Assembly: GCA_045807565.1 (NCBI GenBank)
Contig: JBJMHD010000125.1
Location: 22,254-86,253, forward strand
DNA: 64,000 nt
Direction of reading: 5' to 3'
DNA from: Acidimicrobiales bacterium
Lineage (GTDB): Bacteria; Actinomycetota; Acidimicrobiia; Acidimicrobiales; VFJN01
Positions 3,517-35,485 of this stretch are shown here, piece by piece. How positions within the stretch are numbered: the stretch's first letter is position 1; each line of letters opens with the position of its first letter. The position numbers were made by a program, and so were the translations under genes. The notes beneath the pieces are model-generated. The model was not told the DNA's origin. It searched no databases and saw only the letters and a list, made by a program, of their open reading frames with translations.

Positions 3517-3657
3517 CGCGGCGACTGACAGCGCCGGGCGAGCGGAAGACAAACCAATCAAGAGCGCGGGAGGCAACGATCCGTGGGCTGGCATGGTCGC
3601 AGCGCCCACGGGGAGCCAGGGCGAAACCGGCCCCTGCTCAGGACCGGAAGGACCTCC

Positions 3658-4584
3658 ATGCGCACATCCATGCGGGCGGCCGTCGCGCTGCTCACCATCT
3701 TCACCCTCCTGGGGCTCGGCGGCGCCGTCGCCGGCGCCGGTCAAGAGGGAAGCGTGACGATCTGCCATCGCACGAACTCGAACCACAACCCGTACGTCGT
3801 GGAGAGCCCGAGCGTGCAAGGGCAGAACGGCGCGGCCGATCACCTGCAGGAGCATCAAGGGCCGCTGTGGGACCCCACGCTCAAGAAGCAGAAGATCGAG
3901 TGGGGCGACGTCATCGCGCCGATCGCTGGAGTGTCCGATGACCCGTCCACGCCCGACGTCGACGAGTCCAAGGGCAGCCAGGCCTACCAGGAGCTGGAAG
4001 AGCAGCAGGCCGGAGAAGGGCAGGCGTTCATCGACCGGGGCTGCCATGCGGCTGAGCCGCCCGTCGTGCCCACGCATGGCGTGACGCTCGACAAGGCGAC
4101 GACCGGTGGCACCGCTCCGACAGCTGACACCGAGTTCACCTTCACGGTGGAGTGCGAGTCGGGTGACGTCACCTCGCCGGTGAGCATCGCGCCGGCGGAC
4201 GATCCCGTGAGCGTCGCCACCGGCGTCGCCGAGGACGATCTCTGCACCATCACCGAGACCGGCAGCAACGGGGCTGAGACGATCAGCTTCAGCGTCACCG
4301 GGGGCACCAAGGACTCCTCGACGGCGAGCTCCGTGACGGTCGCCGTCGGCGCCGACTCGGCAGTCCTGGCGACCAACGCCTACCCCGAGCCCGTTCCCGA
4401 GAACCAGGTCGAGGGCAAGGTGATCGAGAAGGCTCCGGCTCCCGTGGTCAAGGCGGCGGCGCTGCCGAAGACCGGCCCGAGCGAGATGACGCCGTACTAC
4501 GCGATGGCTGGCGCGGCGCTCCTGCTCGCCGGATCGCTGGCCCGCTTCGCGAGCCGGCGCCTGTCGATCAGCACCAAGCGCTGA
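3658..4584 (+). CDS. LPXTG-anchored cell-wall surface protein (sortase substrate)
   Basis: Start reset to ATG 3658, preceded by ggaagga. Signal peptide MRTSMRAAVALLTIFTLLGLGGAVAGA. C-terminal sorting signal is LPKTG plus hydrophobic stretch AMAGAALLLAGSLA plus RRLSISTKR. ICHRTNSNHNPYV motif and a Cys-bracketed beta-sandwich-like domain (TFTVECE...DLCTITE). Confidence 0.85.
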   Translation: MRTSMRAAVALLTIFTLLGLGGAVAGAGQEGSVTICHRTNSNHNPYVVESPSVQGQNGAADHLQEHQGPLWDPTLKKQKIEWGDVIAPIAGVSDDPSTPDVDESKGSQAYQELEEQQAGEGQAFIDRGCHAAEPPVVPTHGVTLDKATTGGTAPTADTEFTFTVECESGDVTSPVSIAPADDPVSVATGVAEDDLCTITETGSNGAETISFSVTGGTKDSSTASSVTVAVGADSAVLATNAYPEPVPENQVEGKVIEKAPAPVVKAAALPKTGPSEMTPYYAMAGAALLLAGSLARFASRRLSISTKR

Positions 4585-6431: not shown

Positions 6432-7199
6432 CTACTCCTCCCGGCGTTGGCGGAGGGCGGCCTGCCGGTAGGCGAGGAGCATGAGCTCCGGGTCGCTCCA
6501 GGTGACCTCCTTGGGGACCATGGTGTTCTCGAGCGCCCGGCAGGCGCTGGTGGTCATCGCGAGCGACAGCGGGTCCATGGAGAGGAGGCGCGCCGCCAAC
6601 CGTCGTGCCGCAGGGAGCAGCTCGTCATCGGGGTGCACGTGGTTCAGGAAGCCCCAGGTCGCCGCCTGCTGCGCCGTGAAGCGCTCGCAGGCCATCGTGA
6701 GCTCCTTGGTGCGTGCGGGGCCCAGCTCACGCATCAGGCGAGGCAGCGCCTGCCAGGTGAGGGGGAGGTCGAGCTCCACCTCCGGGATCGAGAACCAGGC
6801 CGACTCGGCGGCGAGCCGAAGGTCGCAGCACGACAGGAGGACGACGGCGCCGCCGATGGCGAGCCCGTTCGCCACCCCGATCGTGACCTGGGGGAGCCGG
6901 TCGAGCATCTCGCACGTGCGACCGCCGAGGTGGGCGCGAGCCCGCCGGTCGATGTCGTTGACCGGCGGCGTGTCCCGCCGGTCACCGAGCTGCGCGCCGG
7001 CGCTGAAGGCCCGGCCCGCCCCGGTGAGGAGCACCACCCGGATCTCGTGGTCGGTCTCGAGGGCGGCGCAGAGGTGCTGGAGCTCGTCGTGCACGGCGAT
7101 GCTCAGCGCGTTGAGCTTGTCGGGGCGGTCGAGGGTGATGGTGAGCAAGCCCGCGAGCTCGTGGTCGCGGTCCACCTGCAGGAGGTCGTAGGAGGTCAT
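6432..7199 (-). CDS. enoyl-CoA hydratase/isomerase (crotonase) family protein
   Basis: Start reset to MTSYDLL (7199). LTITLDRPDKLNAL, VVLLTGAGRAFSAGAQL (oxyanion-hole region), GLAIGGA. Confidence 0.9.
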   Translation of the reverse strand: MTSYDLLQVDRDHELAGLLTITLDRPDKLNALSIAVHDELQHLCAALETDHEIRVVLLTGAGRAFSAGAQLGDRRDTPPVNDIDRRARAHLGGRTCEMLDRLPQVTIGVANGLAIGGAVVLLSCCDLRLAAESAWFSIPEVELDLPLTWQALPRLMRELGPARTKELTMACERFTAQQAATWGFLNHVHPDDELLPAARRLAARLLSMDPLSLAMTTSACRALENTMVPKEVTWSDPELMLLAYRQAALRQRREE

Positions 7200-7322
7200 C
7201 GCGGCCAGTCTCCACCACGGCAGGTTGTGCACGGACCTGTGGTCAGGTGGTGGACAACCTCGCGCGATCTGGGGACAACGGAAAAGGTTGGTGGATAAGC
7301 CTGGGGATCTCGCGACTGGCTA

Positions 7323-7351
7323 TTGACGGAGGTTTCGGCGAGGTCCAGAGT
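7323..7351 (+). promoter_or_regulatory. candidate sigma-70-type promoter for the downstream structured RNA
   Basis: TTGACG (7323-7328), 17-nt spacer, CAGAGT (7346-7351; A2 and T6 conserved). Sequence-only guess. Confidence 0.25.
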
Positions 7352-7357
7352 CGCCTT

Positions 7358-7731
7358 CACCGCAGCGGAACGGAGCGGATCGACACCGAGAAGAACCAGA
7401 GGCTTCGGCCGACGGAGGACCCTCGGAGGAGAACCGACACCACCGCCTCGGGAGGACGAGCAGACACCGTCCGTTCGGGAGGGGGAGCGCAAGCGAACCG
7501 GAACGAACGGTCCGCCATGGTGGTGGGGGGAACCCCAAGAACCAGCGGGATCTGAGACCTGAGCACCTCGGTGCGAGGGTCCTGGAAACAGGACATCGCC
7601 CGCCAGAGCTTCGGCTCCGACGGGCGATGTGGGTGATCAGAGCCAGGCTAACGCCGGGCGAAGATCGCTTGGTGGATGCTCGGCCGACTGGTGGCCCCGG
7701 CGCCGCCTCCCTGCTCCGGCAGGAAGGCGCC
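7358..7731 (+). ncRNA. candidate structured non-coding RNA or long cis-regulatory leader (family unknown)
   Basis: 570-nt gap without a credible ORF. Local GC is visibly lower than in flanking genes. Plus-sense tetraloop hairpins: ggc-UUCG-gcc 7401-7410, (u)gggg-GGAA-cccc(a) 7524-7537, gcac-CUCG-gugc 7563-7574, guccug-GAAA-caggac 7579-7594, and aucgcccg..gagc-UUCG-gcuc..cgggcgau 7595-7628. Confidence 0.4.
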
Positions 7732-7749
7732 CGGGGTCACCCCCGTTTT
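7732..7749 (+). terminator. small intrinsic terminator/attenuator with U-tract
   Basis: cgggg-ucac-ccccg followed by TTTT (7746-7749), with a second TTTT at 7757-7760. T-runs are rare in this sequence. It lies 19 nt upstream of ATG 7768. Confidence 0.4.
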
Positions 7750-7767
7750 GCCGTAGTTTTCGCGGCG

Positions 7768-8214
7768 ATGAGCGACGCGGACGGCAACGGGCCCAACGCG
7801 ACCACCGACGCGCTGGCCGGCACGCAGTGGGAGATCGTGCGCGTGGCCGACGAGCCCGCCGACGCCAGCCACGGCCCGCTCCTCCTCTCCTTCGGTCACG
7901 ACGGGCGCGTGTCGGGCACCACCGGCGTGAACCAGCTCACCGCCAGCTACAGCCTCACCGCCGACTACCTCACGTTCGGACCGCTGGCCACCACGCGCCG
8001 GAGCGGCGACCCGGGCCAGATGGAGCAGGAGCACCGGCTGGTGCAGTCCCTCGCGGGCATGTGCCCCTTCCAGCTCACCGTCCACACCCTCACGATCGAG
8101 GGGCCGCTGGGGGTCGTCGAGCTGGTGACGACCACGCCGCTCCCCACAGCGGCGGTGGCGGAGGAGCGCAGCTACGCCGCCGAGCCCACCTCGGGGGACG
8201 AGGCCAGCGAGTAG
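7768..8214 (+). CDS. META domain (HslJ-like) protein
   Basis: LAGTQWEIVRV...LSFGHDGRVSGTTGVNQLTASYSL..DYLTFGPLATTRR, typical of META/DUF306. Start uncertain: ATG 7768 is preferred over the listed 7627, which would run through the structured region. Confidence 0.7.
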   Translation: MSDADGNGPNATTDALAGTQWEIVRVADEPADASHGPLLLSFGHDGRVSGTTGVNQLTASYSLTADYLTFGPLATTRRSGDPGQMEQEHRLVQSLAGMCPFQLTVHTLTIEGPLGVVELVTTTPLPTAAVAEERSYAAEPTSGDEASE

Positions 8215-33680: not shown

Positions 33681-34460
33681 ATGCCGCGCCTCACCCAGCT
33701 CAGCCGCTCGATCGATGGCAAGGTCGCCGTCGTCACCGGAGCCGCCAGCGGCATGGGACGAGCGACGGCGCACCTGCTGGCCGACGAGGGCGCCGCCGTC
33801 GCGGTGCTCGATCGCACGCCCGACGCCCTGCAGGTCGTGGCCGACGACATCGCCGGCAACGGCGGGAGGGTGGCGGCCATCGACGTGGACCTCTCGGACG
33901 CGGCGGCGACCGACGACGCCATCGCCGCCGCCCGCGACGCGCTGGGACCGATCGACATCCTGATCAACAACGCCGGCGTGAGCCTCGGCGGACCCATCGA
34001 CCAAGACGGGTTCGGCGACGTGTGGGACACCACGCTGGCCATCAACCTCACCGCCTACACGCGAACGATCCGCGCCGCGCTGGAAGACCTCCGGCGGGAC
34101 GCCGCCGGGCGCATCGTGAACGTGGCGTCGACCGAGGGGCTCGGCGCGACAGCTCGGATCTCGCCGTACACCGCCTCGAAGCACGGTGTGGTGGGCCTCA
34201 CCCGGGCCCTGGCCGTGGAGCTCGGCCCCACGGGGGTCACGGTCAACTGCATCTGCCCCGGGCCGATCCGCACCGGGATGACCGAGCTCATCCCCGAGGA
34301 CGCCAAGGTGAAGTTCGCGCGCCGGCGCGTGCCGATGCGGCGCTACGGCGATCCCGAGGAGGTCGCCCAGATCACGCTGTCGCTCGTGCTCCCGGCGGCG
34401 TCGTTCATCACCGGCGCCGTGATCCCCGTGGACGGCGGCCTCACCGTGCAGAACACGTGA
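33681..34460 (+). CDS. short-chain dehydrogenase/reductase (FabG-like)
   Basis: Start reset to ATG 33681. VVTGAASGMGRA, NNAG, YTASKHGVVGLT. Confidence 0.9.
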   Translation: MPRLTQLSRSIDGKVAVVTGAASGMGRATAHLLADEGAAVAVLDRTPDALQVVADDIAGNGGRVAAIDVDLSDAAATDDAIAAARDALGPIDILINNAGVSLGGPIDQDGFGDVWDTTLAINLTAYTRTIRAALEDLRRDAAGRIVNVASTEGLGATARISPYTASKHGVVGLTRALAVELGPTGVTVNCICPGPIRTGMTELIPEDAKVKFARRRVPMRRYGDPEEVAQITLSLVLPAASFITGAVIPVDGGLTVQNT

Positions 34461-35485
34461 CGGTCCGCATCGGGTTCCTGGGCGCGGGCCTGATCGCCGG
34501 CTACCACGGCAAGATGCTCCACCGCTCGGGCACGGACCACGAGATCGCGGCCGTCTACGACATCGACCTGGAGCGCGCTGCGGCGTTCGGGCGCGCGTCG
34601 GGCGCCCAACCCACGGACAGCGAAGAGGCGGTGCTCGACGCCGTCGACGCGGTCTACGTGTGCACCTGGACGAGCGAGCACCCGCGCCTCGTGGCGGCCG
34701 CGGTGGACCGCGGCCTGCCGGTGTTCTGCGAGAAGCCGTTGGCCACCTCTCTCGCCGCCGCTCGTGACATGGCCGACAGGGTCGCGGCCACTGGCGTGGT
34801 GAACCAGGTCGGTCTGGTGCTGCGGAGCAGCCCCGCGTTCCTCGAGCTCAAGCACCAGATCGAGGACCCGCGCAGCGGTCGGATCCAGGCGGCGGTGCTG
34901 CGCGACGACCAGTTCCTGCCCGTGCAGGGGATGTACGGCTCGACCTGGCGGTCGGATCCGGACAAGGCCGGCGCCGGGACGATGCTCGAGCACTCGATCC
35001 ACGACCTGGACGCGCTCGAGTGGCTGCTCGGCCCGGTGGCGTCCCTGAGCGCTCGGTCGAGCACCTTCCACGGCAACCCTGGGATCGAGGACACCGTCGT
35101 CGTGGCGATGGAGCTCGTCGACGGCGCCCAGGTGAGCCTCGCCAGCGTGTGGCACCAGCTGCTCGAGCGGCCGAGCCTGCGGCGGCTCGAGGTCATCTGC
35201 GAGCACGCGTTCTTCACCCTCGAGCACGATGTGACGGGCCCGGTCACGTGGACCCGTCCCGGTGAGCAGGGCTCGGTCGAGGGCGGTGAGCTGTTCAGCG
35301 CGGTGGCGGAGCGGCACGACGGCCGATCGCCCAACCAGGACGCCGGGTTCGTGCACGCCGCCGCGTCGGGGATCCCGGGGCCCCACCCGGACTTCGCCAC
35401 CGCGCTGCGGGCCCACGTGGTGGTTGATGCGGTGTACCGGTCGGCGGCCGACGGCGGCGCGCCGGTGGACGTCAGGCCCGCCTGA
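34457..35485 (+). CDS. Gfo/Idh/MocA family oxidoreductase
   Basis: GTGA overlap with the SDR. IGFLGAGLIAGYH, VFCEKPLA (EKP motif). This is the C-terminal 342 aa of listed ORF 33353..35485. Confidence 0.85.
   Translation: MTVRIGFLGAGLIAGYHGKMLHRSGTDHEIAAVYDIDLERAAAFGRASGAQPTDSEEAVLDAVDAVYVCTWTSEHPRLVAAAVDRGLPVFCEKPLATSLAAARDMADRVAATGVVNQVGLVLRSSPAFLELKHQIEDPRSGRIQAAVLRDDQFLPVQGMYGSTWRSDPDKAGAGTMLEHSIHDLDALEWLLGPVASLSARSSTFHGNPGIEDTVVVAMELVDGAQVSLASVWHQLLERPSLRRLEVICEHAFFTLEHDVTGPVTWTRPGEQGSVEGGELFSAVAERHDGRSPNQDAGFVHAAASGIPGPHPDFATALRAHVVVDAVYRSAADGGAPVDVRPA

Follow-up and report, generated by a model that had tools for sequence, protein, structure and literature searches.

Bacterial non-coding RNAs (ncRNAs) that exceed ~300 nucleotides (nt) and have a structure as conserved as the one described here are few, and those that have been solved are ribozymes, scaffolds of ribonucleoproteins (RNPs) or global regulators. 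Among the closest described systems is the actinobacterial Ms1, a single-gene unit of ~300 nt with a sigma-A-type promoter and a rho-independent terminator, whose RNA binds the RNA polymerase core (PMC4191392). Ms1 is defined by its synteny with a HAD-IB hydrolase ('inhibition of morphological differentiation') and an oxidoreductase, and the synteny survey counts 824 species and no Acidimicrobiia (PMC9130861). Here, we analyzed a 64,000-nt stretch of an Acidimicrobiales genome (assembly GCA_045807565.1, contig JBJMHD010000125.1, positions 22,254 to 86,253; hereafter "the window"). In this window, the gap between a crotonase gene and a META-domain gene had been predicted, from the letters alone, to hold either an independent small RNA (sRNA) or a leader that controls the META gene. 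Our comparative analysis makes it highly probable that positions 7225-7750 are a self-contained gene for an independent, structured ncRNA of ~392 nt that represents a new family.

A conserved non-coding unit in Acidimicrobiales

Comparative alignment places the conserved non-coding unit at ~7225-7750 and divides it into three parts: a repeat array of ~90 base pairs (bp), a promoter, and an RNA of ~392 nt with a terminal hairpin followed by four Us. As the original prediction had it, no larger non-coding gap was found in the window (the sole candidate, 34460-35472, is coding), and the gap is less GC-rich than its flanks (0.62-0.67 versus 0.70-0.78). Its plus strand is purine-rich, with an AT skew of up to +0.42.

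Loci were collected by anchoring on the META protein in GTDB species genomes and public assemblies, with P0121, the product of the gene beyond META, as a second anchor, and additionally by one metagenome scan with an internal RNA pattern. Homology was called by nhmmer, which is sufficient at 71-92% identity. The element is carried by ~35 loci (E-values 1e-82 to 1e-186), with 33 copies full-length and non-identical, and ~540 nt are conserved, at E = 1e-63 to 1e-186, in every orthologous locus retrieved. The check proposed with the prediction, alignment and covariation in relatives, thus came out in its favor: sequence and structure are both conserved in these loci. The named records that carry the element are metagenome-assembled genomes labeled Microthrixaceae, Acidimicrobiales, Acidimicrobiia or "Actinomycetota", and the RNA is conserved in soil and sediment Acidimicrobiales (Microthrixaceae and relatives). 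Relative to the window, the RNA has a median DNA identity of 80.5% and the repeat array one of 85%, the highest of the segments compared; the crotonase and P0121 coding sequences reach 81-82%, and META 73%. Among loci where the META proteins are only 52-72% identical, crotonase is 78-92% identical.

Each locus holds a single copy, the viral, phage and plasmid collections IMG/VR, PLSDB and INPHARED contain no match to the element, and synteny on the P0121 side is kept; a mobile or viral element was rejected on these grounds. The 56 other matches to the pattern in the metagenome scan, considered as distant relatives, were also rejected, being unrelated coding sequences from small gene families. 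One P0121 locus (L096) has no copy of the RNA within 8 kb. Six metagenome contigs (L014, L015, L016, L057, L058, and L062) end inside the element, the likely cause being assembly-graph tangles at a near-exact sequence common to co-occurring strains.

Evidence for a structured plus-strand RNA

To describe the structure, we used an alignment (A4) of 31 copies over 419 columns, for which RNAalifold gave 99 pairs and we added three, for a consensus of 102. In this structure, 97.0% of 3045 cells, drawn from 30 distinct sequences, are paired, compared with 93.6 +/- 0.2 in column shuffles, and the covariation score is 0.157, compared with 0.100. Compensatory double changes occur in 28 pairs, compared with 13.9 +/- 2.0 in shuffles and 5-11 in slid controls, in which the 3' partners are shifted by 1-3 columns while relatedness is kept. 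None of 500 shuffles reaches any observed value, although the sequences are related, so that shuffle statistics overstate significance and these figures are not probabilities; the slid controls keep this relatedness yet fall far short of the observed covariation. Copies only 71-78% identical to the window retain 90-98 of the ~102 pairs, with 2-8 compensatory changes each.

The asymmetry between strands is pronounced. The plus strand pairs 2955 of the 3045 cells, 232 of them as G-U, and its complement pairs 2743 with 20 G-U, since plus-strand G-U cells become C-A mismatches on the complementary strand. The folding energy of the plus strand is -212 kcal/mol (z = -5.25 versus dinucleotide shuffles; minus strand, z = -3.71). 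Because the G-U asymmetry agrees with the directions of the promoter and of the U-tract, we take the plus strand to be the RNA strand, which the loop sequences had already favored. Taken from the alignment, these patterns indicate selection on the base pairing of a plus-strand transcript.

The predicted fold comprises an irregular 5' hairpin, a central domain of five branches with a long-range closing helix, and a terminator hairpin. Helices 4-7 of the 5' hairpin covary (for example, pairs 37-76 and 44-69), whereas helices 1-3 never vary, and the lower third (7360-7377 with 7435-7451) is nearly invariant in both strands and in its internal loops. The central domain is closed by GGACGAG..CACC (7454-7468) pairing with GGTG..CTCGGCC (7671-7685) and shows compensatory changes in helices 10, 11, 13, 15, 16, 17, and 19. 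An all-against-all covariation scan of the columns for pseudoknots and other long-range pairs gave scattered, clade-driven correlations and no stacked helix.

Every coordinate of the original prediction was verified on the sequence, including those of its tetraloop hairpins: GGCTTCGGCC at 7401-7410, TGGGGGGAACCCCA at 7524-7537, GCACCTCGGTGC at 7563-7574, GTCCTGGAAACAGGAC at 7579-7594, and the UUCG hairpin at 7595-7628. The GAAA hairpin at 7579-7594, however, is specific to the window and not conserved. Across the family, tetraloops interchange among UUCG, CUCG, UCCG, UUUG, and GAAG, and since they vary, they appear to be stability caps rather than recognition motifs.

Promoter and terminator

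The promoter-like site noticed earlier, TTGACG-17-CAGAGT at 7323-7351, is present, and its relatives support it. TTGACG is invariant, and the spacer varies in sequence while keeping its length at 17, rarely 18. The -10 element takes the form nAnnnT: its second base is A in 30 of 31 sequences, and its sixth is T without exception (variants CAGAGT, CAACAT, CACCAT, CAAAGT, and GAGAGT, with TTGAGT once). Invariant RNA sequence begins 6-8 nt downstream. By this conservation, a sigma-A-type promoter, TTGACG-17-nAnnnT, is predicted to drive the RNA gene; we infer a transcription start at ~7357-7359 and hence an RNA of ~392 nt.

At the other end, the putative terminator hairpin has a 10-bp helix (7690-7699 with 7732-7741) and a UCCG/UUCG tip (7711-7722), and covariation supports both this helix and the upper ones. 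Pair 356-406 of the terminator helix is found as U-A, U-G, and C-G, 13 compensatory changes affect pair 376-385, and a tract of four to five Ts follows in 27 of 31 sequences. A terminator had been placed at 7732-7749 as a short stem, CGGGGTCACCCCCGTTTT (CGGGG-TCAC-CCCCG-TTTT). A hairpin with U4 is indeed conserved there, but the short cgggg/ccccg stem finds no support in covariation, as changes in its 3' arm are uncompensated.

A probable protein-binding mode of action

Since it has no constant partner in cis, the RNA is proposed to be a stable molecule that acts in trans by binding protein or as part of a ribonucleoprotein, rather than as a base-pairing or cis regulator. Many helices and internal loops are invariant while neighboring helices covary, and the hairpin tips are plain caps; for this reason the RNA probably works through a bound protein or a specific tertiary fold rather than through a seed. 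The frozen segments are 7360-7377 with 7435-7451, GGGAGGACGAG at 7451-7461, 7593-7630, and 7663-7700. The most concrete version of a protein-binding role, by analogy, would be that of a 6S/Ms1-like RNA that sequesters polymerase, which we regard as possible but rather unlikely.

The strongest competitor, itself improbable, is a conventional trans-acting sRNA that base-pairs through a single-stranded seed. An independent promoter-terminator unit would suit such an sRNA, and weak or no pairing is predicted for some invariant purine-rich stretches, such as GAGAAG and GGGAGGA. Yet with ~392 nt, ~100 conserved pairs, and at least eight helices, the RNA is far larger and more structured than seed-type sRNAs, and its invariance spans both strands of helices rather than one accessible seed.

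Search for known RNA families

A scan of the window and 15 homologous loci against Rfam 15, at the gathering thresholds and at E <= 10, gave no family match to the RNA, only a transfer RNA (tRNA) and chance matches, so that the scan called for by the prediction leaves the element unassigned. The loose resemblance to ydaO/c-di-AMP motifs that had been noted found no support in Rfam. That the scan itself worked is shown by its detection of a c-di-GMP-II riboswitch at 3560-3641. This riboswitch (c-di-GMP-II-GAG, RF03169, plus strand, 50.6 bits, E = 5e-7) lies directly upstream of the open reading frame (ORF) 3583-4584, which encodes a protein with a DUF5979 domain. In the literature on ncRNAs of Acidimicrobiia or Microthrix and on RNA motifs associated with META/HslJ, we found no description of the element. 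On these comparisons, it is a previously undescribed RNA family within a known kind, that of stand-alone, highly structured bacterial ncRNAs.

We also consider it very unlikely that the RNA is the Acidimicrobiales member, by descent, of the Ms1/6S family and binds polymerase through an open-promoter-like bubble. Like Ms1, it is an actinobacterial single-gene unit of several hundred nt with a sigma-A-type promoter and an intrinsic terminator (PMC4191392), and Ms1 being unreported in Acidimicrobiia, the niche could be open. However, Rfam gives no 6S match, and an nhmmer profile of the family does not match Streptomyces coelicolor Ms1 (one sequence, verified by rapid amplification of cDNA ends) at E <= 100 with --max; blastn against it returns only chance words of 7-15 nt. 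The diagnostic HAD-IB hydrolase and oxidoreductase are absent as well, the neighbors of the RNA being crotonase, META, tRNA-Leu, SBP_bac_5, a receiver-kinase gene, and P0121. Moreover, the 5' hairpin and multi-branch fold differ, as does the length (~392 nt versus ~300 for Ms1 and 150-210 for 6S). The earlier label "6S/Ms1-like" therefore holds for the size class and fails for sequence, synteny, and fold.

Gene contexts and independence from META

The unit occurs in three gene orders. Order A, that of the window and most loci, reads crotonase (minus), RNA, META, and P0121 (minus). Order B reads SecG, SBP_bac_5, tRNA-Leu(GAG), RNA, a receiver-PAS-GAF-histidine-kinase gene, and P0121 (minus); here, locus L016 covers the RNA, the kinase gene and P0121, and loci L041 and L053 cover the tRNA side. 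Order C reads SecG, SBP_bac_5, tRNA-Leu, RNA, and a convergent P0121 (L094/L095 and L097/L098), with the terminator ~30-40 nt from the end of P0121 and no same-strand gene after the RNA. In the divergent clade, the conserved block starts ~9 nt (L097) to ~50 nt (L053) after tRNA-Leu(GAG), and no integrase and no second copy were seen in the tRNA-Leu loci.

Where META follows, a TAnnnT precedes its ATG by 7-9 nt and a Shine-Dalgarno sequence is absent (28 of 28 META-bearing loci); the hexamer keeps to this range while the distance to the terminator varies from ~4 to 45 nt. A TAnnnT close to the ATG without a Shine-Dalgarno sequence is the signature of leaderless-type promoters in actinobacterial transcription. 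Because this conserved TAnnnT lies downstream of the terminator, META appears to be its own transcription unit.

These observations bear on the second option of the original prediction, a riboswitch or attenuator leader in which a ligand or signal decides at the terminator (7690-7749) whether META is transcribed. The element does lie directly upstream of META on the same strand, the terminator ends 19 nt before the ATG, the two are linked in most loci, and a multi-branch domain with a long-range closing helix resembles a large aptamer. We nevertheless find this option scarcely credible. The unit keeps its promoter and terminator while the neighboring genes change, and so is not a META leader: it is complete without META, preceding the kinase gene in L016 and facing only a convergent gene in L094 and L097. 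A conserved promoter belongs to the unit itself, and META has its own -10. No conserved antiterminator was seen by eye, only a 4-bp GGCC/GGCC alternative, no systematic search having been made, and Rfam 15 yields no match to a riboswitch family (ydaO, cobalamin, TPP, glycine, and others). The first option, an independent plus-strand sRNA of ~390 nt, is strongly supported by conservation, covariation, G-U asymmetry, and changing context.

Two neighbors deserve mention. Public META calls of 173-189 amino acids (P0034, P0047, P0059, and P0095), whose ORF runs into the RNA gene, are probably wrong. P0121, which adjoins the RNA gene in all three gene orders and occurs without the RNA in L096, has no match in Pfam, NCBIfam, or PDB searches. 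Its identity across more than 100 metagenome clusters is nevertheless 75-90%, and 3114 homologues are found at E <= 1e-10.

A phased repeat array upstream of the promoter

The repeats upstream of the -35 all lie on the same strand with spacings of 11, 21, 20, and 12 bp and are helically phased (Table 1). The array is kept in genomes that lack the divergent crotonase gene, and hence belongs to the RNA gene. Where crotonase adjoins the RNA gene, its Shine-Dalgarno sequence and start lie within ~35 nt of the array, which might also affect crotonase.

Read on the minus strand, the units resemble the DnaA box. PMC4285127 gives the high-affinity form of this box as TTGTCCACA for Mycobacterium and Streptomyces and as TTATCCACA for E. 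coli and Bacillus. Nine-mers within one mismatch of either form occur at 2.81 per 100 nt in the array, compared with 0.007 in 208 kb of flanking loci; they are thus ~400 times denser in the array, on one strand only and at a fixed 11/21/20 spacing. Each locus has 2-4 such boxes at fixed positions, apart from L053, with one; L005, a relative of L053, has a perfect TTGTCCACA box. All three occurrences of the pattern KGKGGAYAA in the 64-kb window fall in the array, from whose sites the pattern had been derived.

This arrangement suggests that transcription of the RNA would be set by a protein that binds the 11-bp-phased repeats cooperatively, immediately before the -35. The foremost candidate for this regulator is DnaA, because three or four repeats fall within one mismatch of the actinobacterial or E. 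coli box; we put it forward tentatively, as a possibility with a substantial chance of being wrong. The leading reading of the array has two forms, in which DnaA would act there as a transcription factor or would be titrated. A regulator of the OmpR/PhoB type would suit the phasing just as well, and the MtrA site GTCACAGCG has a CTGTG core in common with the two leftmost units.

The 9-mer TTGGTGGAT, found at 7288 and 7669 and thought to bracket the element, does not do so. One copy (7288-7296) lies inside the array, and the other (7669-7677) inside the RNA, where it forms the 3' strand of helix 9. Each copy is kept throughout the family, although by our rough estimate a 9-mer recurring between stretches of 90 nt and 400 nt is not improbable. 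The RNA helix has the sequence of the DNA box, AUCCACC/GGUGGAU, in most relatives but not in the window itself. That this helix mimics a DnaA box was considered and rejected, the helix not being conserved in the window's own subclade.

The conservation of the array also raises the question of whether the whole region functions only as DNA, either as a cluster of DnaA boxes (for datA/DARS-like titration or within an origin) or as a protein-binding region of another kind, with hairpins that are incidental. In favor of this, no segment is more conserved than the array, whose units look like DnaA boxes, and the invariant hairpin at 7593-7630 is a perfect DNA palindrome. Still, the 28 compensatory pairs and the 232 one-strand G-U pairs point to selection on a plus-strand transcript, and we give a DNA-only function almost no weight. 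An origin of replication (oriC) was rejected separately: dnaA and dnaN were not found among the 24 window ORFs scanned against Pfam, and neither an unwinding element nor a skew switch was seen.

Least plausible of all, to the point of being negligible, is that the region is partly coding, as an N-terminal extension of META or a small ORF: ORF 7627-8214 is open and in frame with META, and some records call META homologues at 173-189 amino acids, but a high GC content leaves reading frames open by chance, 1-2-nt indels occur at many places in the alignment, invariance falls on all three codon positions (which exclude coding, as the prediction had held), the same 3' part precedes other genes or none, and covarying stems span the region.

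Table 1 Features of the RNA gene and its neighbors (positions in the window unless a locus is named)
Feature	Position	Strand	Evidence or remark
Phased direct-repeat array	7225-7315		Minus-strand reading DnaA-box-like; aligned in 28 loci, kept in all three gene contexts
Array unit 1	7238-7246		TGTGGTCAG; TGTGGCCAA in most relatives; other strand TTGGCCACA
Array unit 2	7249-7257		GGTGGACAA, reverse complement TTGTCCACC
Array unit 3	7270-7278		TGGGGACAA, reverse complement TTGTCCCCA
A-tract	7281-7286		Between array units 3 and 4
Array unit 4	7290-7298		GGTGGATAA, reverse complement TTATCCACC; other strand TTGTCCACC in divergent clade
Array unit 5	7302-7310		TGGGGATCT, TGTGGATCT in divergent clade; other strand AGATCCCCA (AGATCCACA)
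Predicted promoter	7323-7351	plus	-35 TTGACG 7323-7328, 17-nt spacer, -10 CAGAGT 7346-7351; comparative conservation
Predicted ncRNA, ~392 nt	7358-7750	plus	nhmmer conservation, covariation, G-U pairs, no Rfam match
5' domain	7360-7451	plus	Long irregular hairpin, UUCG tip 7401-7410; helices 1-7
Central multi-branch domain	7454-7685	plus	Helices 8-19
GCAA-capped hairpin	7471-7510	plus	Central domain
GGAA-capped hairpin	7511-7549	plus	Central domain
Variable CUCG/UUCG hairpin	7558-7579	plus	Central domain
Invariant 15-pair UUCG hairpin	7593-7630	plus	Central domain; also perfect DNA palindrome
Helix 18 and UAAC hairpin	7631-7670	plus	Central domain
Predicted intrinsic terminator	7690-7749	plus	Hairpin 7690-7741, then CCCG, UUUU 7746-7749; helices 20-22
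META -10-like hexamer TAGTTT	7754-7759	plus	8 nt before the ATG, no Shine-Dalgarno sequence
META-domain gene	ATG 7768-7770	plus	Pfam PF03724, E = 8.7e-20
Crotonase gene	6432-7199	minus	Pfam ECH_1, E = 4e-38; ATG read from 7199-7201
P0121 gene	8172-9245	minus	357 amino acids
Gene after the RNA in L016	L016 1613-3973	minus	Receiver, PAS/GAF-like regions, histidine kinase; our reading of the translation
tRNA-Leu(GAG) beside conserved block	L053 2346-2432		
tRNA-Leu(GAG) beside conserved block	L041 2565-2651		
tRNA-Leu(GAG) beside conserved block	L094 9664-9750	minus	
tRNA-Leu(GAG) beside conserved block	L097 9633-9719	minus	

Proposed mechanism and points against it

Put together, DnaA or another cooperative multi-site binder on the array would set the output of the sigma-A-type promoter, which would yield a ~392-nt RNA ended at the long hairpin and U4. 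In its most far-reaching form, the RNA could be the founding member of a new class of large structured RNAs wired to the replication initiator through an array of sub-consensus DnaA boxes. An oriC-like, one-strand, phased array would then set the output of a strong promoter, and the level of a stable RNP-forming RNA would report, or feed back on, DnaA and replication status. We think this form improbable, and we know of no coupling of DnaA to a structured ncRNA.

Several points count against the proposal. For the RNA itself, about half of the pairs never vary and are hence silent on structure, and the start site, 3' end, and expression are deduced from sequence. A scanner for consensus promoters and terminators flags neither element, so both calls rest on comparative conservation. 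The -10 of the window matches TATAAT at three of six positions, and the U-tract is short (four Ts), with CCCG between the stem and the Us, failing the scanner's rule of at least five Ts in eight. For the function, the fold is branched rather than a rod of the 6S/Ms1 type, the sequestering model has no direct support, and our analysis indicated no protein partner. For the array, the DnaA assignment rests on resemblance only, and a regulator of the OmpR/PhoB type fits 11-bp-phased direct repeats equally well. The window has no perfect-match DnaA box, the boxes being consistently one position off consensus. It also has no dnaA or dnaN among the 24 ORFs scanned against Pfam, no AT-rich unwinding element (lowest regional GC 0.62), and no turning point in cumulative skew.

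Significance

Neither Rfam 15 nor the searchable literature contains the RNA, and it is as conserved as the best-conserved neighboring proteins. Its hosts, Microthrixaceae-type Acidimicrobiales, are largely uncultured and common in soil, sediment, and activated sludge, and we found no study of their ncRNAs in the searchable literature. The predicted gene is small and cleanly bounded and hence directly testable, and the phased DnaA-box-like array provides a second, separately testable hypothesis. Our analysis also corrects annotation, as several public records extend the META ORF into the RNA.

Relation to known systems

The array can be compared with known DnaA-box clusters and DnaA-regulated promoters, namely oriC arrays, E. 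coli datA and DARS, the B. subtilis clusters, and the gidA promoter of P. aeruginosa (PMC13438810). It shares with them several one-strand, near-consensus 9-mers, spacings of ~11 and 21 bp, and a position directly upstream of a promoter. It differs in that it does not lie beside dnaA/dnaN, is without an unwinding element or skew switch, and has off-consensus boxes.

Riboswitch leaders such as ydaO resemble the RNA in their multi-helix domain, long-range closing helix, and terminator upstream of a gene. Here, however, there is no Rfam match, the downstream gene changes or is absent, and the RNA and the downstream gene each have a promoter of their own. With 6S RNA (RF00013), the new RNA may share the character of an abundant, stand-alone, structured regulatory RNA, but 6S has 150-210 nt and a long closing helix with a central bubble, whereas the new RNA has ~392 nt, is branched, and does not match RF00013. 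Ms1 (MTS2823/scr3559) comes closer, being likewise an actinobacterial, structured, non-coding single-gene unit of several hundred nt with a sigma-A-type promoter and a terminator. Its rod with a central bubble nevertheless contrasts with the 5' hairpin, multi-branch domain, and terminator hairpin predicted from 31 sequences; the two share neither sequence similarity nor the HAD-IB/oxidoreductase synteny, and the new RNA is ~90 nt longer. Ms1, besides its binding to the polymerase core, builds up in stationary phase.

The remaining comparison is with the large structured RNAs OLE, ROOL, GOLLD, the raiA motif, and HEARO. We know of no RNA of this type behind a phased DnaA-box-like array. The new RNA matches none of their Rfam models and stands in a different gene context, but like them, it exceeds 300 nt, stands alone, has a narrow phylogenetic range, and carries many helices capped by stable tetraloops, with highly conserved junctions and internal loops beside covarying stems; the likeness is one of anatomy.

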